Positions 2,713 to 61,824 of a stretch of DNA of 64,000 nt are shown here, one piece after another. Below the pieces are notes generated by a model that worked only from the letters and a program-made list of their open reading frames with translations, was not told where the DNA came from and did no database searches. The translations under genes were made by a program, and so were the position numbers. How positions within the stretch are numbered: position 1 is the first letter of the stretch; the number at the start of each line of letters is the position of its first letter. Origin of the DNA: Chitinophagaceae bacterium (GTDB lineage: Bacteria > Bacteroidota > Bacteroidia > Chitinophagales > Chitinophagaceae); NCBI GenBank assembly GCA_046329585.1, contig JAXLUI010000001.1:168846-232845 (forward strand), in the 5' to 3' direction.

Positions 2713-2732
2713 GCACAAGAGTGCGACGCAAG
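2713..2732 (-). repeat. Family-1 intergenic repeat (variant, reverse orientation)
   Basis: gcacaagagtgcgacgcaag, compared with consensus GTACAAGTGTGCGACGCAAC. Confidence 0.7.
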
Positions 2733-2808
2733 CAAAGCTTAGCAATGTTCTGGAGCCAGGTCCATAATTATTTTATTTACCCGGCACTGGTATTTCAATT
2801 GTAGTTCC

Positions 2809-2827
2809 GTTGCGTCGCACTCTTCAG
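2809..2827 (+). repeat. Family-1 intergenic repeat (forward orientation, CTTCAG variant)
   Basis: gttgcgtcgcactcttcag. It forms an inverted pair with 2713-2732. Confidence 0.7.
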
Positions 2828-2844
2828 CTACACTGCACAAAATC

Positions 2845-2874
2845 AACAAAAAAACCCGTTCGTATTCGAACGGG
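2845..2874 (-). terminator. Rho-independent terminator of the htrA-like gene
   Basis: Perfect hairpin CCCGTTCG-tat-TCGAACGGG is preceded on the plus strand by an A9 run, which is a T-run after the stem on the minus strand. It lies 24 bp downstream of the minus-strand stop. Confidence 0.7.
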
Positions 2875-2897
2875 CTCTGTATATAAGAAAGGTTTAT

Positions 2898-4424
2898 TTA
2901 TTTATCTCCGCCGGCTTCGTCAATATTAAGCGGATAGCCATAAGTGCCATCGTAACCGGGGTAAATACCTTCAAGTTTCACCGTTCCCTGCGAACTCCTT
3001 AGTATAGCCGCAAGTTGGTCCATGGTTCTTACCTCTTGTCCATCGACGCTGGTAATAACAAAACCTTCCTGCATCCTTGTATTCTTCAATATACCATCCC
3101 CCAATTTTTTAACCAGCACGCCTCCGGCGATGTCATTCTTCTTCGCCGTGGCTGCGTCTAAATTTACCAATTCGCCTCCGAGTTTATCCAGCACACTTTC
3201 CTGTTTGACTGTTTCGTAAGTGCCAGCTTTATTTTTCAGGGTAATTGACGCAGTGCTTTCTTTCCCATTTCGAACGTATGTTACGTTTATTTTGTCGCCT
3301 GGTTTATACCGCAATACCTGCTCCTGTAACTCAGGTCCGGTCGCGATTGTAACACCATTCACTTTAGTAATAAAATCGCCTTTTTGCAGGCCACCTTCTT
3401 TCGCAGCACCATCGTCTGCGACACCACTTACAAATACACCTGGGCCGTCTTTAATTCCCTGGGCTTTTTTCTGCTCTTCAGAGGCGTCATCAGGAGGATA
3501 AGAAATACCGATGTATGCCTTCTGAACCGCACCATATTTCATCAGGTCGTTTACCACTTTTTTTACAATGTTAACGGGTATGGCATAGGAGTACCCGGCG
3601 TAGGAACCTGTTGGGGATGCGATGGCAGAATTAATGCCGATCAATTCCCCTTCGGTGTTGATTAACGCCCCACCACTGTTACCCGGGTTAACTGCCGCAT
3701 CGGTCTGTATGAATGATTCAATCGGGTTGGGCCCTTTGTTAATGCCAATTGAACGGGCTTTCGCACTTATTATGCCAGCTGTAACGGTTACATCAAGATT
3801 CAATGGATAGCCAATAGCCAATACCCACTGCCCCAGTTTAACATCGTCGCTGTTGCCGTAAACCATATAAGGTAAATTGCTGGCATCAATCTTAATAACG
3901 GCCAGATCGGTGTTCCTATCTGTGGCAACCACTGTACCCTTATATGTTTTCCTGTTGGACGTTGTTACGGTAACCTCATCAGCATCTTCTACGACGTGGT
4001 TGTTGGTAACAATATAACCATCATTACTTACCAGCACTCCACTGCCGCTTGCACGCTGTTCCGGGATTACTGAGCTACGTGGGCCGCCAAAAAAATCCTG
4101 GAATGGATCATCATCTCCAAAAAGATCGGAAAGTGGGCTTTTTCGTCTTGGAAGATTGTTGCTAACCTGCCTCTCTTTGGTGCGGGTTTTAATATGCACC
4201 ACCGCAGGTGTAGCCGAAGTTGATGCTGCTGTAAAGTCCACTGCACCCGCTGCCATATTGTTTTTGTCGAAAAATCCCGCATAGTTTACGGGGAGTTTTC
4301 CATCTTGCTGTAATACAACAGAGCTATAATTTCCGGCAATCTTATTATAGCCCCACATACTCAAAATGGCGGTAGAAGCACTTATGGCCACCACCAGCAA
4401 AATGTTTTTGAGTTTCATCGTCAT
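2898..4424 (-). CDS. Do/DegP/HtrA-family periplasmic serine endoprotease with two PDZ domains
   Basis: Trypsin-like catalytic motifs (HVVEDADEV, DLAVIK, GNSGGALIN) are followed by two PDZ-like segments. The N-terminus has a signal anchor (MTMKLKNILLVVAISAST). The start was chosen at the internal Met before the signal peptide. Confidence 0.85.
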   Translation of the reverse strand: MTMKLKNILLVVAISASTAILSMWGYNKIAGNYSSVVLQQDGKLPVNYAGFFDKNNMAAGAVDFTAASTSATPAVVHIKTRTKERQVSNNLPRRKSPLSDLFGDDDPFQDFFGGPRSSVIPEQRASGSGVLVSNDGYIVTNNHVVEDADEVTVTTSNRKTYKGTVVATDRNTDLAVIKIDASNLPYMVYGNSDDVKLGQWVLAIGYPLNLDVTVTAGIISAKARSIGINKGPNPIESFIQTDAAVNPGNSGGALINTEGELIGINSAIASPTGSYAGYSYAIPVNIVKKVVNDLMKYGAVQKAYIGISYPPDDASEEQKKAQGIKDGPGVFVSGVADDGAAKEGGLQKGDFITKVNGVTIATGPELQEQVLRYKPGDKINVTYVRNGKESTASITLKNKAGTYETVKQESVLDKLGGELVNLDAATAKKNDIAGGVLVKKLGDGILKNTRMQEGFVITSVDGQEVRTMDQLAAILRSSQGTVKLEGIYPGYDGTYGYPLNIDEAGGDK

Positions 4425-4675
4425 TTTATTTTTTTGTTTTTTAGTTTCTATTGCTTGGTCAAATTTCGTTCCTTTCGATAACAAAGAAACAAACCTGTTT
4501 AATCGTCAGTTGATAAATATTTCCTTTTAACATAAAATTGACGAAAGGAATCGTAGTTCTGACAATTTTTCTTGTGAATACGACAGCTCTTCTGCAACAT
4601 AAAAAAGTCTTTATTAAAACGCGGTTTTGAAACGTTGCAGTGACTATATGAAACAGCCAAAAAATTAAACAATGA

Positions 4676-5677
4676 CTAGCCCAGTTCCAATAAAAATCTC
4701 ATAGTATCTACCCCATCCGCGTAATCCATTAATCCCGGCGATTGCGCCTTTCCAAAACCGGTGTAACCATTGCCTATTACACATTGAATATCGGTATTGT
4801 TTTCGAGTTTATCTGCCACGTGTTCTTGTGACTGATAGTATTCAAAATGGACCTGGCTGACTGGGGAAAAAACCGAATCACTTTCCACGAATATTAGTGG
4901 GTCACTGCTCATATAATATTTGCTATTCATGATTAGCAAAGCCAGTTGGTAATCAAAATTGTGTTTGTATTTATGGAAGTCGAGATAATACTCATATTTT
5001 TTCACAGCCTGCAGCAACGGCATAAAGTCGTAACCGGCAGGCACAAAGAGCTTGGTCACATTCCTGCAACCAAGGCCAAAATAGAGTAGCATATCATCGC
5101 TCAACAACGCCAACTCTTCCTTACTTTCGTCTCCGGTCAGTACTGCTACGGAAGTCCTGTTTCTTCGCAGCAGTGACGGATATTTTCCAAAATAATACTC
5201 AAAATAACGGGAGGTGTTATTACTGCCTGTTGCGATGTACGCATCGCAGTTTTTTAAAGAGTCTTCAAATTTTATATAACGGCTTACGCTTTCATCCCAC
5301 TCTGTCATTTTTTCAACGAAGTGCTTCAGCAGCACTTCATCCTTTGAAGAAAGTTTAACCCGGGCCACATTGCCCGAAATAAAAACGCAAAGCAGGTCAT
5401 GAAAGCCAACCAGGGGAATATTACCTGCCATTACAATACCTACGCTCTTCGCCGGCCGCAGGTGATCTGCCGCCTGGTAGTATTTCAACCAGTTTTCGAG
5501 GTTGTTTTTTTGCAAAAAATGTTCAGCGATATTTTTTGTCGAAAGCTCGATAGACTCAGGTACAAACCATGGATTCTGCCGGTTCGCCTGCTTGTTTGCC
5601 TCAGCGAGTTGCGGATCGTTACTTTGAAGATATTCACCAAGATGATACAGTAAATTCAAACGATTTTTTATTTGCAT
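4676..5677 (-). CDS. Acyl-CoA reductase-like protein (LuxC family), divergent from the ferredoxin gene
   Basis: A 333-aa ORF. Family assignment is from recalled similarity to Bacteroidota 'acyl-CoA reductase' proteins that are conserved next to a small 4Fe-4S ferredoxin. It was not verified by search. Confidence 0.5.
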   Translation of the reverse strand: MQIKNRLNLLYHLGEYLQSNDPQLAEANKQANRQNPWFVPESIELSTKNIAEHFLQKNNLENWLKYYQAADHLRPAKSVGIVMAGNIPLVGFHDLLCVFISGNVARVKLSSKDEVLLKHFVEKMTEWDESVSRYIKFEDSLKNCDAYIATGSNNTSRYFEYYFGKYPSLLRRNRTSVAVLTGDESKEELALLSDDMLLYFGLGCRNVTKLFVPAGYDFMPLLQAVKKYEYYLDFHKYKHNFDYQLALLIMNSKYYMSSDPLIFVESDSVFSPVSQVHFEYYQSQEHVADKLENNTDIQCVIGNGYTGFGKAQSPGLMDYADGVDTMRFLLELG

Positions 5678-5756: not shown

Positions 5757-6104
5757 ATGGCTATTAAAATAACTGAGGAATGTATCAACTGCGGGGCCTG
5801 CGAACCCGAATGTCCAAACAATGCAATTTACGAAGGCGGCGTAGAATGGGCCATGGCCGATGGCAATACCCTTAAGGGAACGGTCACTTTAATGGATGGT
5901 TCTGCCGTCGATGCAGAGCAGCGCTTTGAACCAGTGAGTGTTGACACTTATTATATAGTTCCAAACAAATGCACAGAATGCCAGGGCTTTCACGAAGAGC
6001 CACAGTGCGCTGCCGTATGCCCGGTTGACTGCTGCGTTCCCGACGAAATGTATCGTGAAACCGTAGATGAACTGCTTGCCAAAAAAGATAAAATGCACAT
6101 CTGA
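5757..6104 (+). CDS. 4Fe-4S dicluster ferredoxin
   Basis: Cys clusters CINCGACEPECP and CTECQGFHEEPQCAAVCPVDCC. Confidence 0.85.
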   Translation: MAIKITEECINCGACEPECPNNAIYEGGVEWAMADGNTLKGTVTLMDGSAVDAEQRFEPVSVDTYYIVPNKCTECQGFHEEPQCAAVCPVDCCVPDEMYRETVDELLAKKDKMHI

Positions 6105-6273: not shown

Positions 6274-6330
6274 CAAACGGGATTTTTTTCCTTTATTTGA
6301 GCCCATCTGACTCCTATTGACCAGGCATCC

Positions 6331-6350
6331 GTTGCGTCGCACACTTGTAC
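6331..6350 (+). repeat. Family-1 intergenic repeat, perfect consensus
   Basis: GTTGCGTCGCACACTTGTAC. Confidence 0.85.
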
Positions 6351-6613
6351 AATTAGTCATAGTTCAGCAAAAACACGAGTGCTAAGCTAATTTCCCCATA
6401 ACTTAATCTCTTCCGTGTTTTCGCTTCGGGGCTTTACAGCTATATGCTTCAATATAGGCGTGCGATCCCGGGTAAGCCTGCACCATAGCGCAGAATGCGA
6501 TGCCTTAAAATGCAAAGGCCGGCAACAAAAAAGTTTCTTCGGACAAACCACAAAATTTCCACATTTATACAGGCTGCATCAGCACATGAACGGCTGTGTA
6601 TATATTTGCCGCA

Positions 6614-9362: not shown

Positions 9363-10022
9363 ATGCAACTGACTACGGTGATTTTTGATATGGATGGGTT
9401 ACTTATCGACAGTGAACCGTTGTGGAATGAAGCGGCAGACGAGGTTTTCAGGATGTATGGCGTAAGCTTATCAGAAGAGCAGTACAATACAACCACGGGT
9501 CTACGTACGAAAGAGTTTGTGCAATGGTGGTTTCACCAGTTCAATCTTGGTGATGCCGAACATGCAAGGGCCGAAAAGCTCATCTTTGAAAAAGTGATGC
9601 AAAAAGTAGATGCCAAAGGAAGGATGATGCCGGGCGTTCATCATATCTTTCGCTTTTTTATAGAGCGCAATTTTAAAATTGGCATTGCCTCTTCTTCGCC
9701 ACAGGCACTCATCGATCTTGTTATAAAAATATGTGGCATCGGCAAATATGTAAATGGCACCGCAACCGCCGAGTATCTTCCGCATGGTAAACCGCATCCC
9801 CAGGTGTACCTCGATTGCGCTTCCACACTAAATTCCAATCCGCTCGATTGCCTTTGTTTCGAAGACTCCTTCCCCGGCATGATCGCCGCAAAAGCTGCGC
9901 GCATGAAATGCGTTGTGGTACCGCATCACAGCCAGGTAAAAGAAGAACGCTGGGCTGCAGCTGATCTAAAACTTTCCTCTTTGCAGAATTTTGGCATGCT
10001 GCATTTAAACCTTTTGCAATAG
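9363..10022 (+). CDS. HAD-IA family hydrolase (sugar-phosphatase / beta-phosphoglucomutase-like)
   Basis: HAD motif I VIFDMDGLLIDSE, motif II IGIASSS, and C-terminal FEDSFPGMIAAKAARMKCVVV. Confidence 0.7.
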   Translation: MQLTTVIFDMDGLLIDSEPLWNEAADEVFRMYGVSLSEEQYNTTTGLRTKEFVQWWFHQFNLGDAEHARAEKLIFEKVMQKVDAKGRMMPGVHHIFRFFIERNFKIGIASSSPQALIDLVIKICGIGKYVNGTATAEYLPHGKPHPQVYLDCASTLNSNPLDCLCFEDSFPGMIAAKAARMKCVVVPHHSQVKEERWAAADLKLSSLQNFGMLHLNLLQ

Positions 10023-10068
10023 GGTATTTTCTTCTGGTCCCGGCTCATGTATTACATGGCATCGCCTC

Positions 10069-10087
10069 TTGCGTCGCACACTTGTAC
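10069..10087 (+). repeat. Family-1 repeat (forward), left arm of the pair upstream of A2M-1
   Basis: ttgcgtcgcacacttgtac, preceded by catggcatcgcctc. Confidence 0.85.
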
Positions 10088-10182
10088 TGCAGAACATTGC
10101 TGAAGGCTGGAGTTTCTGAACCGGTTTTTTGTTGCTGAAATGGCTTGGGCATTTCCCGTTGTTGCTGAATCGGGAGCTAAGC

Positions 10183-10202
10183 GCACAAGTGTGCGACGCA
10201 AC
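10183..10202 (-). repeat. Family-1 repeat (reverse), right arm of the pair upstream of A2M-1
   Basis: gcacaagtgtgcgacgcaac. Confidence 0.85.
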
Positions 10203-10316
10203 AAAAGCCCAATAGATAGCACAAGCCGGGCCCAGAATGTTTTGTAAGCTGTATGTAATCCCGGGCAGATTTGCATCCTTGCGCTAATAGCTTATTTTTA
10301 AACCAATACTGCATTT

Positions 10317-13300
10317 ATGAGAAGAGAACTGCTACTCCTCGTACTCATTGCTTTTTGTTGCAGCGCCACTGCACAACACGCTGAAGACTTTCGACAAGCA
10401 TGGCATACGATCGACTCGCTGATGGTTGAAAAAGATCTTCCTGCTTCGGCGCTTGCAAAGGTCGATTCATTGTATAAAGCCGCAAAGGAGCAACACCGGG
10501 ACGACGAGATGATAAAGGCAGTTGTATACAAACTTTCAATCGACAGCAAGATTACAGAGCACAACATCAACGTTACTTACCGGTTATTGTGGAACGAAAT
10601 GAAAGATGCGACAACGCCTGTAACCAAGGCTGTTCTGCAGGCACTGCTTGCCGATAAAATCAATAAGCTTTACACGCAAAATATATGGCAAAACCAAAAC
10701 AGGAAAACGGTCCCGGGGAACAAGGACAGCGATATAACCAGTTGGAGCAATGAACAACTCGTTGCAGCAACAGACAGCCTTTACGAGGAGTCACTTTCTC
10801 AGGAAAGCCTATTACGTAACATTAATATCTCAGCCTATGCAGGCATAGTGCTGAGTGGTAATACTCCCGGGATTAGAACAACACTGTATGATGTGCTGGC
10901 GCACCAGGCACTTGACTACTACAAGACGGGGCTGCGTTATATAACTGAACCGGCTTATGCTTTTAAGCTGACAGACAAAAACTGCCTGGCTGTTACGGAT
11001 GATTTCATAAAGGCCGGCTTTTCCTCAAAAGACAGTGCATCGCATTTATTGAAATCAATTCACCTGTTCCAGCAGTTGCTGGCATTTCATCATAACGATT
11101 TAAATGCAGAAGCCTTTGTGGATGTAGCAATTGAACGCATTCTCTGGGTAAACACATTCGGTTCTTTCGACAACAAGGATGTACTTTATGTAAACGCGCT
11201 TCAGGACATTGCTGCGAAATACGCTAAAACAAGATCCGCTGCAGAGGCCTGGTTTCTTTTAGCCGACCGTGAATCTCAAAAGGCGGATTCTTATAAACCA
11301 ACCGGCGACTCGCTGAACAGGTATGGGTATATAAAAGCAAAAACAACTATCCTCGAACGGTTCAAGGCAATGCCGGATCATTGTTTGGGCAACGATGAAA
11401 TGAACGCCTTGCTTCACAGGATTACTAGCCCGGAGTTGAATACCGTAGCTGAAAATAATAATGTAGCCGGCCAGCCATTCAGACTATTGGTAAAATATAG
11501 GAACGTAGATACCCTGTATGCAAAAGTATTATCACAGCAAGATGTAAACAAAACCGCCCGTAAAAAAACTTATAACAAGTGGAGAGATTTGCCCGCAGTT
11601 AAGGCTTTGCAAACATTTGAGCAATGGCTACCGAAAACAAACGACTACCAGGAGCACAGTGTTGAGGTAAAAATAGACGCACTGCCGGTGGGCGACTACA
11701 GCATATTGTTCAGCAACAGTAAAGACTTCAACAACGATAAAGACAAACTCGTGTTGCAAACACTGAGTGTTTCGGAGCTCGCTTATATGCACAATGAATA
11801 TGACTACTTCGTGGTGAATCGGGAAACTGGGCATCCGGTCAAAGATGTGAAAGTCAGGGGAACAATTGAAGTAAAACGAAAAGGCAAAGACGACTGGAAA
11901 ACAAAAAAAATAAAACCGGTTTACACAGACTCGAATGGCCACATCGCATTACCTGTTGATCTAAAAAACAAGAACCGATATGGAGATGCAGACCTTCAGT
12001 TTTCAAAAGGAAAAGAAGTTTTATATTCTTTTGATCGGGCGTTTGGCTACAGCTACAGCAATAGTGAAGATGAGGATGACGACGAAGATGATTCAACTTA
12101 TGAAGATGATAACTCGTTCGTGCATTTTTTTACGGACAGAAGTATCTACCGTCCAGGCCAAACAGTTTATTTTAAAGGCATTGTACTCACCAAAGACCGA
12201 AAAACCCGAAAAGAAAAACTGTACCGGTATCCCGATAGTGCCGAGATAGACCTGAACGATGCCAATGGTAAAATGATCGACTCAATGTTTGTAAAAGTGA
12301 ATGAGTACGGCTCTTTCAGTGGAAAATTCCGTTTGCCTCAAAATGCGCTCACCGGTGAATTTTCTATAGACAGCTACGATTTCATGGATGGGGAGATCGA
12401 ATTCAACGTGGAAGAATATAAGCGCCCAACATTCTATATGGAATTTGATGGCATAAAAACCGCTTACCGGGTTAAAGACACGATTACTATTTCCGGCTAT
12501 ATAAAAGCCTATGCCGGTAACGCGGTCGACAACGCAAAGCTGACTTACAATGTCGAGCGGTCGGCATCCTTCCCATACCCTTACTTGTTTTGGAAAACGA
12601 GACGCCCTTATTCAGGCACGGAAGAAATCGCAACCGGTTCAGTTGACGTAGATGCAAACGGGAAATTTGAGATCAGGTTTGTTGCTATGCCCGATAGTTC
12701 TGTTGATAAGAACTCAGAACCTTTTTTCAATTTTTCGGTCGACATATCGGTAACTGATGCAAACGGTGAGACAAGGGAAGGCAAAACAAACATCAATATC
12801 GGCTATAAGTCTTTATTGTTGCAGATAACCGTTCCCGGTATAGCAGATGCCGGGAATTTTCAAAACATATTTGTTACCACAAAAAACTGCGCAGGGGAGA
12901 ATGTTCCCGCCAATGTTCTGCTAAAGGTAAGCAAATTAAAGGTTCCCTCAAAAGCCTACCGCACCCGGCAATGGGAAAGACCAGACCAGTTCATTTTCGA
13001 CAAGGCGGCCTACCAAAATTACTTTCCAAACGATGAATACGAAGCGGAAGCCGACTACCATGAATGGGTTAAAATGCCAGCCGAGGTGCTTGACACATTC
13101 AATACGGCAACGAGTTCGGCGTTCAGGATAAAACAACCCCTGCTGCAGGGCTGGTATTGCGTTGAAGCAACAACAAAAGATAATGATGGCATGGAAGTAA
13201 AAGACGTTCGCTACTTCCAGTTGTACGATATGGACGAACCAGGGCTTCCATCTCCCCAGGTGAATTTTTCTAAAGTGCTAAACAATTCGGGTTTGTCCGG

Positions 13301-16916: not shown

Positions 16917-16988
16917 ATTTTACAAAAGCTTTTTCATTCGCCAATTGTGTTTTATGTTGCCGGCTGCAGTTTTTCATGGCATCGGCTC

Positions 16989-17007
16989 TTGCGTCGCACT
17001 CTTGTAC
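16989..17007 (+). repeat. Family-1 repeat (forward), left arm of the pair upstream of A2M-2
   Basis: ttgcgtcgcactcttgtac, preceded by catggcatcggctc. This is nearly identical to the 24-nt flank at 10055. Confidence 0.85.
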
Positions 17008-17100
17008 GGTAGCATACAAATCAGAAAAAGCCATAGTCCGCATTTATCATTTGCCGAAGCAGTTGCGGTTTGCGTCTTTGCAGAATTCCGTTCAAACCGC

Positions 17101-17118
17101 ATAAGAGTGCGACGCAAC
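17101..17118 (-). repeat. Family-1 repeat (reverse, variant), right arm of the pair upstream of A2M-2
   Basis: ataagagtgcgacgcaac. Confidence 0.7.
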
Positions 17119-17253
17119 AGTTGATGAGGGCAGTGCAAAAGCCCGGACACAAAAATTACTCGCTGTTTTTAAAATATAGCATGCGGGCTTTATGCATTTT
17201 CTTTAGCATTGCATCCTCCTAATATCACTAAATTGTGTCACCAATTTTTTTTC

Positions 17254-43277: not shown

Positions 43278-43297
43278 GTTGCGTCGCACACTTCAGC
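43278..43297 (+). repeat. Family-1 repeat (forward, CTTCAGC variant)
   Basis: gttgcgtcgcacacttcagc. It shares the CTTCAGCT tail with the copy at 2809. Confidence 0.8.
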
Positions 43298-51208: not shown

Positions 51209-51317
51209 AGCTACTGAAGATTAACCGGGTAAAGCTAACGGTATTTGCGAGGCCTGCAATAACATTTGACAAACACGGCACATGGTAAGGGTAGACCGAT
51301 GAAGCGGGTTCAGAACG

Positions 51318-51336
51318 CCGAAGTGAGTGACACAAC
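51318..51336 (-). repeat. Family-2 repeat (5'-truncated)
   Basis: ccgaagtgagtgacacaac. Confidence 0.75.
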
Positions 51337-51471
51337 AGGCGCCGCCACCTGCACCGCTGCCCGTAAACATACCTGCTAAGTTTTCTTTCCGCTATCAAAC
51401 AGTTTGTCCGCTATCGGACAACTTTCAATCTTCGATTTTGCATAAAGCCTTGCTTTTCAATAAACAACGTT

Positions 51472-52759: not shown

Positions 52760-52811
52760 AAGACAACATACACAAACCGCAGGCCTAACGTATAAAGCCA
52801 AAGAAAGGAAA

Positions 52812-54272
52812 ATGAAACAACTGACTGTATATATAGCCTTCATACTCTTAAGCCAGATTAAACCCTTTGCGCAGGCAAGTGATACCGTTTTACTTTCACT
52901 GGACGAAGTGATTGATATGGCTAAGGCTAAATCGATCGAATCAAAACAGGCGTCCACTACCAAAGAAACAAAGTATTGGCAGTGGCGCACGTACCGGTCA
53001 AACTATCAGCCGCAGTTGCTGTTAAGCGGCACCTTACCCGCATACAGCAAGACTTTCACGCAGGTGGTGCAGCCCGACGGAACAATATTGTTTCAACCGA
53101 TCCATTACAATAACTCTTCGCTCGATCTTTCTTTCAGCCAAAGTATCGCGGCAACAGGCGGCACCGTGTTTGGCACTACCGCCCTTCAGAAATTCAACAA
53201 CTTTGATGAGAAGACACAGCTCTACAACACAGTTCCGTTTAGTGTCGGGTACAGCCAGCCGATATTCCAGTTTAATTCGCTGAAGTGGGATAACCGCATT
53301 GAACCACTCAAATACAACGAAAGCAAACAGGCTTTTAGCGAGTCGATGGAACTGATAGCCATTACAGCAAGTGTATATTTTTTCGACTTGTTGCTGGCGC
53401 AGGTAAACTACCAGATCGCAGGAACAAACCTCGACAACAACCGGAATATTATGCGGATCGCCAACGAAAAATTCGACCTCGGCAAAATATCAAAGAATGA
53501 AATTTTACAGTTACAGTTAGAACAGTTAAAAGCAGAAAAAGCGGAAGGCACAGCTAAGAGGGATATGGAAATTGCACAGCTAAACCTGCACGCTTATACG
53601 GGCATTCAGTCAACGGATAAGATTGCCCTGCGCCTTCCTTCGGAGATAAAAGAGTTGAGTATTTCTGCGGACAAAGTCTTGTCAGAAGCGTATGCCAATA
53701 GAAGTGATGCAATCGCATTCGTACGCCGCATTGCAGAAGCACAGCGCGATGTAGCGAAGGCGAAAGGCGACAATGGCCTTAATGCAAAACTCACGGCCAA
53801 TCTTGGTTACTCACAAAGCGCGTCAACGATTTCAAAAGCGTATGTTTCCCCGCAGGACCAGCAATTGCTGTTGCTCGAATTCGACATCCCCATTCTTGAT
53901 TGGGGCCGATCAAAATCACGCACAAAAACAGCGGAAGCCAACCTGAAATTTGCCGAGTATTCGGTGGAGCAGGATAAGCAAAACTTTACACAGGAAATTG
54001 TTACGCAGGTAACGCTTTTTGAAATGATGAAAGACCAGGTGAAGCTGACTGCAAAAGCTGACAGCATTGCATCGGAGAAATACGAGATTGCGCAGCAGCG
54101 TTATGTTTACGGCGATCTCAGCATCACCGACCTCAGTATCGCCTTCCAGGAAAAAGACCAGGCGAAACGCGACTACATAACGGCGCTTCGTGATTTTTGG
54201 GGCGCGTTTTATAACCTGCGTTATCTTTCCCTGTACGACTTTGAAAAAGGAATGAAGATCGTGTACAGGTGA
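52812..54272 (+). CDS. TolC-family outer membrane efflux protein
   Basis: Signal peptide. Two tandem TolC-like repeats with characteristic coiled-coil segments. Confidence 0.8.
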   Translation: MKQLTVYIAFILLSQIKPFAQASDTVLLSLDEVIDMAKAKSIESKQASTTKETKYWQWRTYRSNYQPQLLLSGTLPAYSKTFTQVVQPDGTILFQPIHYNNSSLDLSFSQSIAATGGTVFGTTALQKFNNFDEKTQLYNTVPFSVGYSQPIFQFNSLKWDNRIEPLKYNESKQAFSESMELIAITASVYFFDLLLAQVNYQIAGTNLDNNRNIMRIANEKFDLGKISKNEILQLQLEQLKAEKAEGTAKRDMEIAQLNLHAYTGIQSTDKIALRLPSEIKELSISADKVLSEAYANRSDAIAFVRRIAEAQRDVAKAKGDNGLNAKLTANLGYSQSASTISKAYVSPQDQQLLLLEFDIPILDWGRSKSRTKTAEANLKFAEYSVEQDKQNFTQEIVTQVTLFEMMKDQVKLTAKADSIASEKYEIAQQRYVYGDLSITDLSIAFQEKDQAKRDYITALRDFWGAFYNLRYLSLYDFEKGMKIVYR

Positions 54273-54392
54273 ATGGCAGGTAAAAAGGGAGGAAGTTGAC
54301 AGGCCCAACTGCGGCAGCAAAGATTCGGGATGGCACATCTGTATTATCGAACACAAGGCAACCACGTTTTTAACAATAGAAAACAATAACAC

Positions 54393-55058
54393 ATGATACG
54401 TTTACAAAACATTGAAAAGGTTTACCGCACAGACACAGTTGAAACACTCGCCTTAAACAGTGTGAGCCTGGATATTGCCAAAGGGGAGTTTCTTTCCGTC
54501 ATGGGCCCTTCGGGTTGCGGCAAGAGTACATTGCTCAATATAATGGGCCTGCTTGATATGCCTACAAAAGGTGAAATAAGGATCGGTGATAACAAAACGG
54601 AAAACTTAACCGATAAGCAGCTTGCGCAGTTCAGGAATAAAACCATCGGCTTTATTTTCCAGAGCTATCATTTGATCAACGATTTAAAAGTGATAGACAA
54701 TGTAGAATTGCCTCTGCTCTATCGCAGCCTTTCAGCCAAAGAAAGAAAAGAACTTGCCGGAAAGGCACTGGAAAAAGTTGGGTTGAGCAATCGCGTAAAA
54801 CATTTTCCTACACAGCTATCTGGCGGGCAGAAACAACGTGTTGCCATTGCAAGGGCTATCGTTGGCAGGCCTGAGATTATTCTTGCAGATGAACCTACGG
54901 GTAATCTCGACAGTGCAATGGGCAACGAGATCATGGATATTCTTTTGCAACTGAACCAGCGCGACGGTACCACCATCGTAATGGTAACCCATGATGAAAA
55001 CATGGCGAAGAAAACACACCGGCTCGTGCGGTTATTTGATGGAAGCCAGGTACAGTAG
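54393..55058 (+). CDS. ABC transporter ATP-binding protein (MacB/LolD-type)
   Basis: Walker A GPSGCGKST, signature LSGGQKQRVAIARA, Walker B ILADEPTGNLD. Confidence 0.9.
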   Translation: MIRLQNIEKVYRTDTVETLALNSVSLDIAKGEFLSVMGPSGCGKSTLLNIMGLLDMPTKGEIRIGDNKTENLTDKQLAQFRNKTIGFIFQSYHLINDLKVIDNVELPLLYRSLSAKERKELAGKALEKVGLSNRVKHFPTQLSGGQKQRVAIARAIVGRPEIILADEPTGNLDSAMGNEIMDILLQLNQRDGTTIVMVTHDENMAKKTHRLVRLFDGSQVQ

Positions 55059-55106
55059 CCAAAAATCCGGGCGCCAGGATGGAGCATGCTGAATAGAGAA
55101 CCGGTT

Positions 55107-55126
55107 GTACAAGTGAGTGACACAAC
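55107..55126 (-). repeat. Family-2 repeat, perfect
   Basis: GTACAAGTGAGTGACACAAC followed by aaag. Confidence 0.85.
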
Positions 55127-55191
55127 AAAGATGCATAAAGATGCAACGGCCGGGCAAATACAAACTACACTCATAACACTGATAACATTTT

Positions 55192-56430
55192 ATGCTAACA
55201 AATTATTTTAAAATAGCCATCGCTGTGCTGAAGCGGAGAAAGTTTTTCACGTTCATCAGCCTGTTTGGCATAAGCTTTACGTTGACGATTATTATTGTAA
55301 CCACTGCGTTTGTCGATAATGTCATCAGCAACAATTACCCCGAAGTGAACAGGGACCGCAGCCTGTATATTAATTTTTTGCAGCAACGAAATTCCAAGTT
55401 TGGCTCCGAAATGAATGGCCCGGCAAGCTACTATTACATGGATAAATATGTAAACAGTTTGAAGACGCCGGAAAAAGTTGCCATCGCTTCGCTGTTCATG
55501 CCGGTAAACGCCTACGTGAATAATAAAAAACTTGTAGTGAACAACAAGTTTACCAACGAAGGCTGGTGGGATGTAATGCAATACGAGTTCCTGGAAGGCA
55601 AACCATACACGCAACAGCAGATAGATAACGGTGATCGTGTTGCGGTGATAACCGATGACCTGAAGAAAAACTATTTCGGCGATGTGCCGGCGGTGGTGGG
55701 TAAGTTTATAGAGGTCGACAATGTGCAATACCGCATAACCGGGGTTGTAAAAAGTGTTCCGGTAACCATGCTCATCTCTTACGCTGATCTTTTTGCTCCA
55801 TATACTGTTTCAAAATCAGATTACAAAAGCAAGGAGTTTGCCGGCATATACTCGGCTGTGCTATTGGCACACTCGAAAGCCGATATTCCAAAAATGCAAC
55901 AGGAATATGCGGATGTGGTTGCTAAAATAAGACCCGACCGAAAAGATTTCGACCAGTTCAAAAGCAATGCCGACACCTATGTGGCAAGTTTTACCAGGCA
56001 AATGTCCAACGAAAACGACGGCACAGGTTTATCTTTTCTAATTACAGTTGCCGTTATTTTTATTTTGTTTTTCATGTTGCTGCCAACACTGAACCTTGTA
56101 AACATTAACATCAGCAGGATCATGGAACGTTCGTCTGAAATAGGCGTGCGCAAAGCGTTTGGCGCTTCATCCAAAACCCTCGTGTGGCAGTTTATCACCG
56201 AGAACATTATACTTACCTTTTTCGGCGCGGTTATAGGTATTCTCTTGTCTTTCGTAATCCTGCAGGCAATCAACAACAGTAACCTTATCAACAACATTCA
56301 CCTGTCGATCAATTTTACCGTATTAATGTTCAGCCTGCTGGCAACACTCGTATTCGGGCTACTATCGGGTGTTTACCCCGCATGGCGCATGTCGAGGTTG
56401 CAGGTGGTTACCGCTTTAAAGGCGCAATAA
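55192..56430 (+). CDS. ABC transporter permease, FtsX/MacB-like
   Basis: N-terminal TM, large periplasmic MacB_PCD-like domain and a C-terminal 3-TM FtsX domain. Confidence 0.8.
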   Translation: MLTNYFKIAIAVLKRRKFFTFISLFGISFTLTIIIVTTAFVDNVISNNYPEVNRDRSLYINFLQQRNSKFGSEMNGPASYYYMDKYVNSLKTPEKVAIASLFMPVNAYVNNKKLVVNNKFTNEGWWDVMQYEFLEGKPYTQQQIDNGDRVAVITDDLKKNYFGDVPAVVGKFIEVDNVQYRITGVVKSVPVTMLISYADLFAPYTVSKSDYKSKEFAGIYSAVLLAHSKADIPKMQQEYADVVAKIRPDRKDFDQFKSNADTYVASFTRQMSNENDGTGLSFLITVAVIFILFFMLLPTLNLVNINISRIMERSSEIGVRKAFGASSKTLVWQFITENIILTFFGAVIGILLSFVILQAINNSNLINNIHLSINFTVLMFSLLATLVFGLLSGVYPAWRMSRLQVVTALKAQ

Positions 56431-56455
56431 ATTAATCAAACATCAAAAACATTTT

Positions 56456-57655
56456 ATGATACGGCATTTATTCAAACTGGCATGGAACAAGAAGAAACAA
56501 AACTTCCTGCTGATAACGGAGATGTTTGTCTCTTTTATTGTAATGTTCGCAGTGTTTACGCTCATGGTGTTCTATTACAACAACTATAAAACTTCTATGG
56601 GTTTTGATTACGATAATGTATGGGTAGCCAACTACACGCCGCCCCAAAATATCACGACCACTGATTCTTTTCAGATCTTTCATCAAAGCCTGGGGAATAT
56701 GGTCAGGTCTATGCCGCAGGTGAATGACATCAGCTTTACCAGTGCCAATGTTCCCTTCGCCATGAGCACCAACAGCACAGAAGTAAGTTTTGGCAATAAC
56801 CGGCATATCCGCACCAACGTATATCAAACAGAAAATGATTATAAAAAGGTGCTCAATTTGAAAATGGCAGAAGGCCGTTGGTTTACCGATGCGGATAAAA
56901 TCACAGGCAAGTACACACCTGTGGTGATCAACAGCAAACTGAAAGAATCGTTGTTTGGCAATACCGCTGCAATCGGTAAAATAATCAGGGAAGAACAATT
57001 TGACGAGGTGCCCCCCGCAGACAAGTACCGCGTGATTGGTGTAGCCGAAAACATGAAAGACAAAGGCGATTACCAGGAAGTTGAAAACGGTATGTTCGTT
57101 GCCATTGATACCGGCTGGATGCGCAATGCCGGTAACATCCTCATTCACGTAAAACCCAATGCCGATGCAGCTTTTGAAGGCAGGCTATCAAAGGCACTTT
57201 CCAACGCCATCGGCACAAGCATTGAGATCGAACACCTTGATAAAAAGCTGCAAAGCAAAAACCTGTTAATGCTCGTTCCTTTGATTATCGCATTGATTGT
57301 TGCCGGCTTTCTCATCATCAATGTCGCACTGGGTTTATATGGGGTGTTGTGGTACAACATCAACAAACGAAAAGCAGAGATCGGCTTGCGGAGGGCTGTT
57401 GGCGCTTCCGGCGCAGATGTGTCAAAACAACTGGTTGGCGAAGCGCTGGTGCTTGCGACCATCGCACTTATAATCGGTACGTTTTTCGCCGTGCAGTTTC
57501 CGTTGCTCAATGTATTCGACCTGCCGGCCGGCGTATATATTACAGCGCTGCTGCTCGCCGTGTTGTTCATTTACTTACTGGTACTGTTTTGTGCCTTATA
57601 CCCCGGCAGGCAGGCCGCGGCAATTTATCCCGCCGTTGCATTGCATGAAGAATAA
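56456..57655 (+). CDS. ABC transporter permease, FtsX/MacB-like (second copy)
   Basis: Same architecture. It has LRRAVGASGADVSKQLVGEALVL. Confidence 0.8.
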   Translation: MIRHLFKLAWNKKKQNFLLITEMFVSFIVMFAVFTLMVFYYNNYKTSMGFDYDNVWVANYTPPQNITTTDSFQIFHQSLGNMVRSMPQVNDISFTSANVPFAMSTNSTEVSFGNNRHIRTNVYQTENDYKKVLNLKMAEGRWFTDADKITGKYTPVVINSKLKESLFGNTAAIGKIIREEQFDEVPPADKYRVIGVAENMKDKGDYQEVENGMFVAIDTGWMRNAGNILIHVKPNADAAFEGRLSKALSNAIGTSIEIEHLDKKLQSKNLLMLVPLIIALIVAGFLIINVALGLYGVLWYNINKRKAEIGLRRAVGASGADVSKQLVGEALVLATIALIIGTFFAVQFPLLNVFDLPAGVYITALLLAVLFIYLLVLFCALYPGRQAAAIYPAVALHEE

Positions 57656-57690
57656 TGATGGGCCGGCCTCAAGTAATGCTATTAAACATT

Positions 57691-57710
57691 CTTGCGTCGC
57701 ACACTTGTGC
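57691..57710 (+). repeat. Family-1 repeat (forward), left arm of the pair between the efflux permease and the regulator
   Basis: cttgcgtcgcacacttgtgc followed by tttcgcagcaatg. Confidence 0.85.
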
Positions 57711-57822
57711 TTTCGCAGCAATGTGCGGCTGATGATGAGTTCGGACTTCTGAGGGAATGCTCAAAAAGGGTAGCACGAAAAAAGTTGTGCATACGCAAAC
57801 AACAGCGCATAGTTATTCTTTA

Positions 57823-57842
57823 GTACAAGTGTGCGACGCAAC
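57823..57842 (-). repeat. Family-1 repeat (reverse, perfect), right arm
   Basis: GTACAAGTGTGCGACGCAAC. Confidence 0.85.
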
Positions 57843-57896
57843 GATGTTGATAAGCGGCAAAAAGCTGGTAACAAAAAATAGTAAATTGCCTTTCAG

Positions 57897-59273: not shown

Positions 59274-60561
59274 ATTCCTGTTGTTTGTGGTCATCATTCA
59301 CCTGGTTGCACTGGTGTTATCTTTTTTTATTTTCAGCAACAACAAGATCCTGTTCATCGCCTCGGAAATACTCATCATTATATCAGTGTTTATCTGCTGG
59401 CAACTATACCAGGAACTATTGCGGCCGATCAACATGCTGATGCAGGGTACCGAAGCAATCAAAGACCGCGATTTTAATGTAAAGTTTGTAGAGACTGGCA
59501 AATACGAAGTTGACCAATTAATAAAAGTATACAACGAAATGATTGACGGGCTTCGAACAGAACGCACGAAGCAGGAGCAACAGCACTTCTTTTTAGAAAA
59601 ACTGATTCATACTTCCCCAACGGGCATCATGATCCTCGATTATGACAACAATATTCAGCAGGTAAACCCGAAAGTAGAAGAACTGCTTGGCCTTGGCGAA
59701 ACCACACTAAAGGGCAAAGCAATTGATTCAATCGGCCACCCTTTGATGCAATATATACCTGCGCTCCAATCGGGCGACTCCAAAACAGTTACCATCAACG
59801 GGGTAAACACGTATAAACTGCAGAAATCGCATTTTATAGATCGGGGTTTCCCTCGGCATTTTATTATGATGGAAGAACTCACCGCAGAAATTCTTGCAGC
59901 AGAAAAAAAAGCCTATGGCAAGGTAATCCGAATGATGGCGCACGAAGTCAACAATACCATCGGCCCGGTCAACTCCATTTTGCAGACCACCATAAAAAAC
60001 CAGTCGCTCTGGCAAAATACCGGGTTGGAAACATTGCAGGATGCTTTAAAAATAGCCATGGAACGCAACCATAACCTCAACAGTTTCATGCGCAATTTCG
60101 CAGACGTGGTAAGGCTTCCCGCTCCGGCAAGGAAAAATGTTGATCTTGTCAGGTTGCTGCGGTCAACGGTGACGCTGATGAAACTCAGGGCCGGTGAAAA
60201 ACAAATTGACTTTGAATTTGATTTTAAAACGGAATCCTTTTTTATCCATGCCGATGAACAGCAGTTGGAACAGGCATTGATCAATATCGTAAAAAATGCC
60301 ATGGAAGCCATAGATGCTGCCGGTAAGATCAGCTTTGCGCTAAATACACACACGAGGGAACTGGTGATCAGCGATAACGGCAAAGGCATCAGCGACGAAG
60401 CATATACGCAGTTATTCAGCCCTTTTTTCAGCAGCAAAAAAGATGGGCAGGGAATCGGCCTCACCGTGATCCGGGAAATCCTGATCAGCCACGGTTATGA
60501 TTTTGCCTTAAAGACCAATGCCGACGGTATCACAGCATTCTGGATTCATTTACTCACTTAA
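59257..60561 (+). CDS. Sensor histidine kinase
   Basis: Two N-terminal TM segments, HAMP-like linker, PAS-like region, H-box MAHEVNNTIGPV, and G-box GQGIGLTVIREI. The start overlaps the regulator gene by 17 nt. Confidence 0.8.
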   Translation: MKLRNKFLLFVVIIHLVALVLSFFIFSNNKILFIASEILIIISVFICWQLYQELLRPINMLMQGTEAIKDRDFNVKFVETGKYEVDQLIKVYNEMIDGLRTERTKQEQQHFFLEKLIHTSPTGIMILDYDNNIQQVNPKVEELLGLGETTLKGKAIDSIGHPLMQYIPALQSGDSKTVTINGVNTYKLQKSHFIDRGFPRHFIMMEELTAEILAAEKKAYGKVIRMMAHEVNNTIGPVNSILQTTIKNQSLWQNTGLETLQDALKIAMERNHNLNSFMRNFADVVRLPAPARKNVDLVRLLRSTVTLMKLRAGEKQIDFEFDFKTESFFIHADEQQLEQALINIVKNAMEAIDAAGKISFALNTHTRELVISDNGKGISDEAYTQLFSPFFSSKKDGQGIGLTVIREILISHGYDFALKTNADGITAFWIHLLT

Positions 60562-60606
60562 TATTTTTAATATTTTGGGCCCGGCTTTAGCACTGACAGC
60601 ATCTTC

Positions 60607-60626
60607 GTTGCGTCGCACACTGCTGC
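60607..60626 (+). repeat. Family-1 repeat (forward, 3'-diverged)
   Basis: gttgcgtcgcacactgctgc. Confidence 0.7.
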
Positions 60627-60945
60627 GCCTGTAACTTCTTTCGACAGGAGTAATTTAATAGGCTATCTATGGCCTCTGGCATACCCGCCATGTCGTGGCT
60701 ATTCTTCCAACCAAAAGCTCTTATAGTTATAAAGCCTGGTTATTATAGTTTACAGTTCTTGCTGCAACATTTCCGAACCAACGCCGCCTGGTCTGCCAGG
60801 TGAACGATCTAGATGAAAATAATCTCACGTACCTGGTGTTGGTTGACAAAGTTTTAGATGGTGATAGTCGTTTTTTACTCCTTAAGTCTACCCAAAAGTG
60901 TCGCGCCATTCATTTATTTCCTCGCATAAAAACCGGGTGTTCAGG

Positions 60946-60960
60946 TATGCGACGCAAACT
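60946..60960 (-). repeat. Partial family-1 repeat (reverse core only)
   Basis: gtatgcgacgcaaac. Confidence 0.4.
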
Positions 60961-61081
60961 GGTGATGGGAGAAAGTTTTGTTCGTTCACAAAAAATGATA
61001 CGGTCAATGGCTGCCGTGTAAATTTTCAGGAAATCATCTTCGCTGTATTCAACTTGCTAACTTTAAGCCTGATTATGACTG

Positions 61082-61501
61082 ATGAATACTAAAAATTATT
61101 TTGTAACCAGGTGTTTGGAACTAGCGAAACTAGCTGCGGAAAAAGGCAACAGCCCTGTAGGTGCGGTTATTGTAAAAGCTGGTACAATAATCAGTGAAGC
61201 CGAAGAAGCAGTCAAAACGAACAATGACATTACCTGTCATGCGGAGTTAGAAGCGATCAGGCAGGCAGTAAAATACCTGGCAACAAATGATCTGTCAAAT
61301 TGTACTCTGTATTCAACACATGAACCATGTGTGATGTGCTCTTATGCGATCCGGTTCTATAAAATCAGGGAAGTATTTTACCTGCACAAATCCCGATACT
61401 TAGGCGGTGTTTCATCTGCGATGCCGCTGTTAACAACGCCTCATGTTCCTCCTGGATGGAGTGACGCGCCGATAATCAATCATCCTGAGGCAAATGACTG
61501 A
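61082..61501 (+). CDS. Nucleoside/tRNA adenosine deaminase family (CMP/dCMP-type zinc deaminase)
   Basis: Zinc-binding motifs HAELEAI and STHEPCVMCSYAI. Confidence 0.7.
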   Translation: MNTKNYFVTRCLELAKLAAEKGNSPVGAVIVKAGTIISEAEEAVKTNNDITCHAELEAIRQAVKYLATNDLSNCTLYSTHEPCVMCSYAIRFYKIREVFYLHKSRYLGGVSSAMPLLTTPHVPPGWSDAPIINHPEAND

Positions 61502-61804
61502 ACCCAGGTATTCTGATTACGCTATCCTGCAAATCTTGTGTACCTTCTTACAAAACCTGCAGTAAGAAAACTAAATCCTCCGGCATCTTTATAAATGACA
61601 TATTACTCACGCTTTGCTGGCACGCTCAAACCACTTGGCTTACCACCGGGAACAGCAACATGATCCGGTGCCATGTCAAAAGTCAAACTCAAAAAAGCAA
61701 AAAACTTCAAACCTCAAAGATTATGGCTGGCATAAGTATGCCTCAGGTGCTGCATCCGCAAGCCGTTATGCTATCCGCTCCTTTGGCTGAATAGCGAACT
61801 GAAT

Positions 61805-61824
61805 GCAAAAGTGAGTGACACAAC
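61805..61824 (-). repeat. Family-2 repeat (variant 5' end)
   Basis: gcaaaagtgagtgacacaac followed by caaagccc. Confidence 0.75.

Follow-up and report, generated by a model that had tools for sequence, protein, structure and literature searches.

A 64,000-nucleotide stretch of DNA from a Chitinophagaceae bacterium (assembly GCA_046329585.1, contig JAXLUI010000001.1, positions 168,846 to 232,845; here called the window) carries, in the spacers between its genes, many copies of an asymmetric element of about 90 bp that matches no described repeat, RNA or promoter class. The element is an interspersed extragenic repeat that fails the tests for a repetitive extragenic palindromic (REP) sequence, a miniature inverted-repeat transposable element (MITE), a REP doublet forming hairpin (REPIN), a terminator, a promoter and an Rfam family. 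Three regularities go beyond those described in an earlier sequence-only reading of the same DNA: neighboring copies alternate in orientation, the element is conserved across the family, and its core exists in a compensatory variant form. We propose, with a probability of roughly 0.4, that it is an ancient, vertically inherited Chitinophagaceae repeat, retained as the site at which a lineage-specific factor docks on the DNA.

The window was scanned with two patterns, GTTGCGTCGCACACTTGTAC (family 1, up to three mismatches) and GTACAAGTGAGTGACACAAC (the variant). The first produced 19 matches compared with 0.03 expected from shuffled sequences, the second produced 11, five of them family-1 copies again, and the union of both is 22 distinct copies. 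The sequence-only reading had reported 25 copies, 19 of family 1 and six of the variant, spanning 2713 to 61824. The repeat is real and the span is right, but the sum counts three copies twice (23476, 27206 and 55107, which match the variant exactly; the other three, at 38219, 51317 and 61805, have two to three mismatches). When the aligned copies were used as the model in a profile search (nhmmer), 21 of the 22 were recovered at E < 1e-7 and the one at 51317 weakly, and two were added, of which that at 2765-2866 (+) is good and that at 60927-60997 (-) is weak. Including a truncated remnant at 23386-23417, the window holds about 24-25 copies (22 solid, two degenerate and one remnant), approximately one per 2.7 kb. 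All of them lie outside open reading frames (ORFs), as had been claimed. Across the window and 116 loci of other genomes there are 257 copies, and 249 of them do not fall within any ORF of 110 aa or more.

To define the unit, 256 copies from the window and other genomes were aligned in register on the core. Read from its 5′ end, the unit consists of a T-run (-40..-33, often terminated by G), a CCnGC box (-28..-24), about 20 weakly conserved bases that include TATT at -12..-9, the core, and a GTTCAGAAC-like stretch followed by CTATTCAGCAA, which reaches about +42. No conservation was found in this alignment past the limits of the unit (beyond about +45). Within the flanks, it is mainly the T-run, the CCnGC box and a small number of further positions that are conserved, and the positions adjacent to the core do not exceed 0.8 bit. 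The flanks CATSGCATCG..CTC and CAGCAATG, which had been thought to extend many copies, do exist but mark subfamilies of this more general unit. Every copy carries the flank signature, and no "naked" core resembling a guide was found in the approximately 1 Mb examined. The consensus is the same in copies facing stop codons and in those facing start codons.

The core has the consensus NTTG-Y-GTC-R-C-W-C-W-CTTnnnC, with a near-invariant center of 16-20 bases. In the 22 good window copies positions 2-4, 6-8, 10, 12, 14, 15 and 20 are invariant, G or C occupies position 1, A or T occupies position 13, and variation is seen at positions 17-19. Positions 5, 9 and 11 switch jointly, reading either C/G/A or T/A/T. 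In 100% of the 256 copies the bases at 5 and 9 are Watson-Crick partners, in one of two states, by which the dyad GCG-T-CGC (GCGTCGC) becomes GTG-T-CAC (GTGTCAC). This exchange of C5-G9 for T5-A9 is the sole covariation detected, and it falls inside a dyad of 7-9 bp centered on one base. Other high values of mutual information were found between neighboring columns, where they reflect subfamilies and small indels, and the scan of the aligned copies revealed neither long-range pairs nor any signal between the left and right flanks. The covariation of the dyad suggests a site that may be recognized by a dimer.

The distribution of the element was determined by scanning a collection containing one genome per prokaryotic species with GTTGCGTCGCACWCTTGT. 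At least 116 loci were found (approximately 35 chance matches would be expected by arithmetic in the whole collection), and all the loci listed belong to Chitinophagaceae or Chitinophagales or are labeled Bacteroidota only. The carrier genera listed are Segetibacter (S. koreensis DSM 18137, S. aerophilus), Ferruginibacter, Flavisolibacter, Flavihumibacter, Lacibacter, Foetidibacter, Pinibacter, Paracnuella, Puia, Ilyomonas, Flaviaesturariibacter and Chitinophaga, and both core variants are present across the family. The exact 18-mer core was also found in 20 predicted viral contigs of IMG/VR (L127-L146), and a search of a plasmid collection with the core gave no match. The window is 100% identical to a metagenome contig in ENA (ERZ27248707). 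Other assemblies with the same OmpA-family protein are likewise 100% identical to it and hence uninformative on strain polymorphism. No match to a described family was found in Rfam, and literature searches by sequence and by topic retrieved no description of the element or of its core.

Orthologous sites were compared by following the gene for the OmpA-family protein, which is 84-95% identical across genera, into eight other genomes. The closest relative (L117, 95%) has copies, in the same orientation, in four spacers that are occupied in the window. It also has a copy after the gene for an alpha-2-macroglobulin-like (A2M-like) protein, where the window has a remnant, and a weak copy after the Band_7 gene, where the window has none; all six carry two to five mismatches. 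L148 has two decayed copies at sites equivalent to those of the window. Foetidibacter (L119), like the window in this region, has perfect cores, one of them in a window-occupied spacer, and a remnant at another. No copy was found in the 21 kb compared from each of Ferruginibacter sp. SUN106, Niastella soli and two further genomes; the assemblies are GCA_050611765.1, GCA_017742245.1, GCA_014182865.1 and ERZ21784910, respectively. Where L026 and L027 share an orthologous copy, the core is identical at 20 of 20 positions and flank identity is about 0.4. The arms of an orthologous close pair in L037 and L046 are approximately 88% identical over their conserved inner part (0.73 across the ungapped 45-nt flank), and the loop between them is unrelated and differs in length (core-to-core 73 vs 147 bp). 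This persistence at orthologous sites indicates that the copies are old and vertically inherited, and that their cores are kept in some lineages and released in others. Constraint on the core is strong and depends on the lineage; that on the flanks is weak and specific to certain positions.

Three of these loci hold sequences of other kinds beside the element. In the spacer after the OmpA-family gene of L119 (11790-11860), the 3′ half of a variant core and the downstream box (CACTCACTTAC..GCAGCAAT) are present, and the 5′ half of the element is replaced by a hairpin, GAGTGCCTGG...CCAGGCACTC. Therefore, single copies decay even in lineages that maintain the element. In L037 (Chitinophagaceae UBA4407), a palindromic repeat not related to the element (GGTCGACTGTTGACCGTCAACTGTCGACGG-like) recurs in the loops of two close pairs (545-597 and 6024-6076); its place in the L046 orthologue of the loop is taken by a long hairpin of another sequence, GAACCTGGATTT...AAATCCAGGTTC. 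Facing GTAC ends may enclose a hotspot of insertion or replacement.

The orientation of the copies relative to each other is not random. In the other genomes 109 neighboring pairs are inverted and 24 direct, about seven standard deviations from 1:1, and in the window 18 of the 21 neighbor pairs are inverted. The inverted to direct ratio fades with distance, from 44:5 at 0.6-2 kb (90%) to 33:11 at 2-4 kb and 12:9 beyond 4 kb. Within the 0.6-2 kb range, the T-sides point inward in 23 brackets and the GTAC sides in 21. Of 26 pairs less than 600 bp apart, 24 face each other by their GTAC ends, one is back-to-back and one is direct; pairs less than 260 bp apart have spacings of 44-206 bp. When a co-directional close pair contains a variant core, the variant is the antisense arm (5/5). 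Singletons far outnumber pairs, and the flanks of paired copies are 0.36 identical, compared with 0.34 for random copies, with no covariation between partners. Neighbors are inverted in 76% of cases across co-directional genes and in 82% across divergent or convergent genes. Since the inversion rule is independent of co-transcription, it does not come from pairing within a transcript and points to DNA. A pairing of the 5′ and 3′ ends of operons, with the T-sides bracketing them inward, was considered and rejected on the basis of the numbers of brackets (23 vs 21), the lack of covariation between partners and the inversion across divergent and convergent boundaries. The rule fits equally well a preferential deletion of segments between direct repeats and a factor that uses inverted pairs.

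Orientation with respect to genes follows no such rule. Over the window and the 116 loci, the T-run side is turned to a stop codon in 123 cases and to a start codon in 111, and in co-directional spacers there are 66 sense and 72 antisense copies, with the same consensus either way. The sequence-only reading had placed the copies usually 30-120 bp past the 3′ ends of genes; this is correct for part of them, but about half are upstream of the start codon of a gene on the opposite strand. The T-side sits nearer the gene than the GTAC side, and in 6 of 12 sense cases in the window the T-run is within 10 nt of the stop codon. Among spacers of at least 150 bp, in loci selected for the core, 57% of the co-directional, 58% of the convergent and 45% of the divergent ones are occupied. 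Genes flanking the copies of the window code for a type III polyketide synthase, HtrA, MutS, a HAD hydrolase, two A2M-like proteins (~2100 aa), the OmpA-family protein, an ABC transporter, Band_7, GH43, an amidohydrolase, an amino-acid permease and TspO, and also include a MacAB/TolC-like operon and a sigma-54 two-component system. Because these genes are unrelated, the copies do not define a regulon. This agrees with the previous opinion that they are not transcription-factor sites of that kind, the element being interspersed genome-wide among unrelated housekeeping genes.

Folding of the unit (-45..+45) was indistinguishable from that of shuffled sequence on both strands (-14.4 to -15.1 vs -14.7 to -15.2 kcal/mol). 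The element had been described as not self-complementary and as different from a classical REP palindrome, and both descriptions hold, the unit having no fold and its covariation being limited to the mini-dyad. Rfam 15 gave no matches at the gathering score across the window and none at E ≤ 5 for a paired copy, and a scan of the window for tRNAs found none. A structured RNA or riboregulator was rejected on the basis of the Rfam result, the fold and the absence of long-range pairs in the mutual-information scan. The layout of an intrinsic terminator is not present either: the T-run precedes the GC-rich box, and a strong hairpin (<-10 kcal/mol) upstream of the T-run was found in 17% of the stop-facing copies. 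The presence of the element and that of an intrinsic terminator are unrelated (20% vs 16% in co-directional and 47% vs 51% in convergent spacers). A role as a substitute terminator, hinted at by one 20-kb stretch in which elements and terminators seemed mutually exclusive, was dropped, as 394 spacers over all loci show no association. Regarding promoters, the comparison with the Bacteroidota sigma-A consensus (-33 TTTG and -7 TAnnTTTG, 19-21 bp apart) showed a TTTG and a TA spaced roughly as expected and no second TTTG. The ECF-type (extracytoplasmic function) and the Bacteroidota -33/-7 models both fail, and the orientation towards genes is random. A sigma-54 promoter was also rejected; its GG/GC spacing would have to be one base shorter, and only a subfamily carries the motif.

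Two clear canonical terminators in the window indicate that the organism uses ordinary ones. At 2845-2876 (-) GCCCGTTCGAATACGAACGGG plus T7 stands after the HtrA gene and is followed by two element copies, and at 32976-33010 (+) AAAGCCGCTC..GGGCGGTTTT plus a T-run stands after Band_7, in a spacer with no copy.

Under the explanation that we favor, an old burst of a mobile ancestor probably spawned the copies, after which the core would have been held intact as the docking site of a sequence-specific trans-acting factor. The likeliest candidate would be a protein whose dimer sits on the dyad and which touches the site asymmetrically elsewhere, and the weakly conserved flanks of about 40 bp (a T-tract, CCnGC, and CTATTnAnC boxes on either side of the core) would probably help to shape or wrap the DNA. 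Where a lineage keeps the factor, perfect cores would be retained at the same spacers over genus-scale times, and its loss would lead to decay and disappearance of the copies. Inversion of neighbors would arise through the loss of direct repeats by deletion, or through the use of inverted site pairs by the factor. Action at the level of DNA is proposed because gene orientation is random, neighbor inversion is independent of co-transcription and the unit is unfolded. The existence and nature of this factor, its action on DNA and its role in the cell are put forward tentatively, as is the view that the element would be neither promoter, terminator nor riboregulator. By analogy with REP sequences and bacterial interspersed mosaic elements (BIMEs), the role might be architectural, that of a boundary, topological or recombination site between transcription units.

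Several observations weigh against this explanation. The copy at 27206 (-) differs in core type and flank from the family-1 copies that occupy the same spacer in L117 and L119, which suggests some turnover by ongoing copying or conversion. The direction of transcription matters to some degree: among co-directional copies the variant core is antisense in 20 cases and sense in four (p~0.002), and sense copies abut stop codons, often starting there. Some copies must be transcribed, since the 107- and 133-nt intercistronic gaps that contain 29164 (+) and 55107 (-) are too short for a terminator plus a promoter. In addition, the deletion account of the orientation rule is an argument and not a measurement, the binding factor is hypothetical, and 16-20 near-invariant contiguous positions are long for a protein site and would fit pairing with a guide RNA.

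The strongest of the rival explanations, although unlikely in our estimate, is that the element is a still-active, non-autonomous mobile element of the MITE or REPIN type. A remote transposase or recombinase would copy it and replication would maintain the consensus, with no use for the host. The sequence-only reading pointed in this direction by describing the repeat as REP/BIME- or MITE-like; the interspersed, intergenic lifestyle is indeed shared, but no evidence for mobility was found and the element is not specifically a feature of 3′ ends. REP and BIME sequences, as in Enterobacteriaceae, have been known for about forty years, and what they do is debated (topology, mRNA stability). The well-studied interspersed extragenic repeats are almost all hairpin-forming and come from Proteobacteria, and REPIN populations decay after loss of the single-copy RAYT gene. 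In a REP, an imperfect palindrome forms a stem of 5-13 bp and leaves a terminal GTAG or CGTC tag unpaired, and REP dimers are inverted head-to-head, with direct arrangements avoided and hetero-dimers favored (PMC3733652). Our element resembles them in being short, abundant, extragenic, often transcribed and family-wide, and in that its close copies are inverted head-to-head, avoid direct dimers and favor hetero-dimers of the two types. It differs from them in being a non-folding, asymmetric unit of ~90 bp with an invariant contiguous 16-20-mer. The CGTC at core positions 5-8 lies inside the dyad, is TGTC in the variant and has no adjacent stem, in contrast to the REP tag. Also unlike in REP/BIME, inversion of neighbors spans whole genes, up to ~4 kb, and the element is not depleted near start codons, with a mild depletion in divergent spacers (45% vs 57-58%).

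High copy number, strictly intergenic placement and REP-like close pairs, head-to-head and often hetero-paired with direct ones almost absent (PMC3733652), are what a mobile element would be expected to show. The lineage-wide decay would follow once the mobilizing enzyme was lost, and the same-spacer difference at 27206 (-) and the few flank-similar pairs, together with flank subfamilies that recur across genera, can be read in the same way. However, a search for evidence of mobility turned up no target-site duplication, no conserved sequence between paired copies and no clean insertion polymorphism. The CTATTnAGC boxes that flank the core had been candidates for a duplication and were rejected, since they are parts of the consensus and not specific to each copy, and there is no mutual information across the flanks. 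Flank identity is the same within a genome (0.348) as between genera (0.344), and the 24 window copies have no close or near-identical relatives among them (best flank identity 0.53), an absence limited by the fact that the window represents about 1% of a genome's copies. For that reason a conclusion that the lack of young copies means no mobility was withdrawn, and only the statement that there is no evidence for mobility was kept. The loop of the orthologous pair is not conserved, and partners are only as alike as random copies. No transposase domains were found in the window, and no RAYT in the window or among genes enclosed by inverted copies. An autonomous parent element was sought by clustering the enclosed proteins and scanning ten of them against Pfam; all were ordinary (GNAT, Uma2, methyltransferase, response regulator and others). 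Finally, spacers are co-occupied across genera, and each presence/absence case examined was a decayed copy and not an empty site.

Like REPINs mobilized by RAYTs, as in Pseudomonas and Enterobacteria, the element shows long vertical inheritance, lineage-wise decay and inverted doublets, but the doublet is not the conserved unit: loops are unrelated in orthologues, most copies are singletons, and there is no hairpin to offer to a Y1/HUH enzyme. Correia/NEMIS elements and other MITEs are similarly abundant and intergenic, with inverted ends and possible co-transcription; however, the conserved internal sequence, defined termini and target-site duplications of MITEs are all absent from the element.

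A second rival, of low probability, regards the element as an RNA signal in untranslated regions, involved in 3′-end formation, processing or stability, with inverted copies pairing as RNase III substrates. The copies of the 107- and 133-nt gaps, the sense copies that begin at the stop codon, the ability of close pairs to form 20-bp stems and the bias of the variant core with the direction of transcription are all in its favor. These facts are offset by the lack of fold in the single unit, whose 3-bp mini-dyad with a one-base center is too small for a hairpin, and by the equal frequency and identical consensus of sense and antisense copies. Furthermore, the inversion rule is equally strong where the copies cannot share a transcript, no association with terminators exists either way, no Rfam match was found at E ≤ 5, and the flanks of partners do not covary.

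A more ambitious form of the docking-site explanation, which we consider doubtful, is that oriented sites are bound by a lineage-specific protein or ribonucleoprotein that acts on inverted pairs and partitions the chromosome into gene-sized units. Such a chromosome-wide system, hitherto undescribed in bacteria, could represent boundaries of recombination modules, a chromosomal counterpart of pdif sites, or orientation-dependent anchors of DNA loops or topological domains. The pdif sites, recognized by XerC/XerD, are 28 bp long, with two 11-bp arms around a 6-bp spacer, and bound accessory modules in Acinetobacter plasmids. To our knowledge, they are the sole described case of a short asymmetric site that strictly alternates along a replicon. 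The alternating orientation and the gene modules bounded by inverted sites, with one site serving two neighboring modules, are features in common. The element, however, has no arm-spacer-arm layout and is chromosomal, located between housekeeping genes in conserved synteny, and no mobility of modules was seen in the conserved-synteny loci compared.

That the element is a DNA uptake signal, kept perfect by a receptor preferring core-bearing DNA and by recombination (molecular drive), appears very improbable. The uptake signal sequences (USS) of Pasteurellaceae and the DNA uptake sequences (DUS) of Neisseriaceae are 9-12 bp long, occur about once per kb and are common in genes. A density of ~1 per 2.7 kb, an invariant core with weaker AT-tract context at fixed spacing, both orientations, a family-wide core with a "dialect" variant and inverted pairs downstream of genes are reminiscent of them. 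Perfect orthologous cores with drifting flanks, and lineage-wide decay as after loss of competence or of the receptor, would also be expected. The core, on the other hand, is twice as long as theirs, and a 16-20 bp core within a ~90 bp unit is too long to arise by point mutation at thousands of loci. About 3% of the copies are in ORFs, unlike USS/DUS, both variants coexist in one genome with an orientation bias, and drive does not predict flank subfamilies across genera. Chitinophagaceae are not known to be naturally competent.

Even less probable, in our view, is that the core is read through one or two guide RNAs by a DNA-binding protein, for example a nuclease-dead TnpB or Cas12-like protein like those recently described in Bacteroidota. 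RNA-guided transcription factors of Bacteroidota have a minimal adjacent motif and a weak preference for T nearby (PMC13472631). The contiguous run of ~16-20 near-invariant positions with a sharp drop on both sides, the orientation-independent signal at the DNA level and the loss by whole lineages are consistent with such a target. In opposition to this, there was no naked, guide-like core in ~1 Mb and no TnpB/Cas12-like gene in the window, the adjacent positions are weakly conserved (≤0.8 bit), guide pairing does not require the compensatory change in the dyad, and the known systems have a handful of targets and not thousands.

Hardly any weight can be given to a promoter, with the G-terminated T-run (TTTG, -34..-31) and the TA ~19 nt downstream (-12/-11) as -33/-7 elements at roughly the expected spacing and a start site at the core, where conservation drops at the first base, or with an alternative sigma factor, as the TGGCAT..TTGC of one subfamily resembles a sigma-54 site: antisense transcription from half of the copies (72 vs 66) would run into the 3′ end of the gene upstream, close pairs would fire into each other, the remaining -7 box (TTTG) is unmatched, the GG/GC spacing of the sigma-54-like site exceeds the proper one by a base and is limited to that subfamily, and no ECF-like -35/-10 spacing fits.

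The copies of the window follow here in order of position. The first (2679-2778, -; core 2713-2732, CTTGCGTCGCACTCTTGTGC) is back-to-back with the one that had been missed by the sequence-only reading (2765-2866, +; core 2809-2828, GTTGCGTCGCACTCTTCAGC; profile search E=4e-11), and the two have an AT-rich end in common. A copy with an exact core (6284-6386, +; core 6331-6350) lies between a ferredoxin gene and mutS. The sense, left arm of the next close pair (10019-10098, +; core 10068-10087) has its T-run 1 nt past the stop of the HAD gene, and the antisense, right arm (10151-10237, -; core 10183-10202), 115 bp from its partner, is upstream of the gene for a 2199-aa A2M-like protein. Another close pair is formed by a sense left arm at 16944-17039 (+; core 16988-17007) and an antisense right arm at 17066-17161 (-; core 17099-17118), 111 bp apart. 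The remnant at 23386-23417 (+) retains the T-run, a CCGGC box and a truncated core, and its orthologue in L117 is intact. It is followed by a variant copy (23449-23539, -; core 23476-23495, GTTGTGTCACTCACTTGTAC) and by a copy with an exact core (25398-25473, +; core 25432-25451), the L117 orthologue of which has decayed.

The OmpA-family gene has a variant copy upstream (27164-27264, -; core 27206-27225) and a sense copy at its end (29117-29190, +; core 29164-29183), the T-side of which overlaps the stop codon. This sense copy has orthologues in L117 and L148, and the next ATG is located 50 nt past its core. The copy upstream of the Band_7 gene (30933-31023, -; core 30954-30973) has decayed orthologues in both L117 and L148. 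At 34093-34171 (+; core 34127-34146) the T-run of a sense left arm begins at the GH43 stop codon, 198 bp from its antisense right arm (34284-34387, -; core 34325-34344). A sense copy (37671-37746, +; core 37717-37736) follows the amino-acid permease gene, and a variant copy (38198-38287, -; core 38219-38238) is sense relative to the preceding minus-strand esterase gene. The sense copy at 43227-43326 (+; core 43278-43297) is directly past the stop of the TspO gene. The degenerate variant copy upstream of the HlyD-family gene (51307-51344, -; core 51317-51336) has a profile E=0.14, and the variant copy at 55082-55177 (-; core 55107-55126) lies inside the MacAB/TolC-like operon, where 133 nt separate the gene for the ABC ATPase from that for the FtsX permease. 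A sense left arm (57647-57731, +; core 57691-57710) overlaps the FtsX stop codon and is paired, 132 bp away, with an antisense right arm that has an exact core (57809-57884, -; core 57823-57842). The last three copies are a sense one with its T-run 1 nt past the stop of a histidine-kinase gene (60560-60653, +; core 60607-60626), the weak degenerate one (60927-60997, -; core 60939-60958, TTTGCGTCGCATACCTGAAC; profile E=0.13) and a variant (61767-61875, -; core 61805-61824).

Some features of the surrounding genes were recorded as well. A gene cluster is kept in all nine genomes examined (window 25505-30881; L117-L120 and L147-L149); its members code for proteins of ~206 and ~330 aa, the 588-aa OmpA-family protein, a ~260-aa permease-like protein and an ABC ATPase. 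The first three of these proteins have no Pfam match, and in eight of the nine genomes (the window was not checked) a gene of ~60 aa precedes the cluster. The tandem giant genes at 10317-16916 (2199 aa) and 17209-23385 (2058 aa) code for the A2M-like proteins, and the larger product also has CarboxypepD_reg and TonB Plug domains, an unusual fusion. The MacAB/TolC-like efflux operon that contains an element copy extends over 51512-57655 (HlyD-family, OEP, ABC ATPase and two FtsX permeases). In L015 and L119 tandem MacB/FtsX paralogues are likewise separated by copies of the element, and two of the L015 copies are 88% identical in their flanks, probably via tandem gene duplication. Genes for a type III polyketide synthase, a methyltransferase and an FAD-dependent oxidoreductase stand in a row at 21-2687 and may be a small biosynthetic cluster that continues past the edge of the window.

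Independent metagenome contigs of the same strain, 100% identical to the window, break exactly at cores: L122 ends at 29183, and L123-L126 start at 27200-27218. Short-read assembly of this organism therefore seems to be interrupted by the repeat. On the basis of this one region, the repeat may fragment metagenome assemblies of Chitinophagaceae, which are common in soil and freshwater. For the family itself, the element represents a non-hairpin extragenic repeat outside Proteobacteria, with a core fixed across many genera, and the compensatory two-state dyad would point to a specific binding partner. Cultured carriers include Segetibacter koreensis, S. aerophilus, Foetidibacter luteolus, Lacibacter sp. 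MH-610, Pinibacter aurantiacus and Paracnuella aquatica. Among carriers, complete or nearly complete genomes are available for Lacibacter sp. MH-610 (NZ_CP116002.1), S. koreensis DSM 18137 and OY970196.1, and perfect cores mark the Foetidibacter luteolus genome GCA_009650435.1. The lineages in which the copies are perfect, decaying or lost constitute a natural experiment, and phyletic profiling across them should reveal the proposed trans-acting factor.

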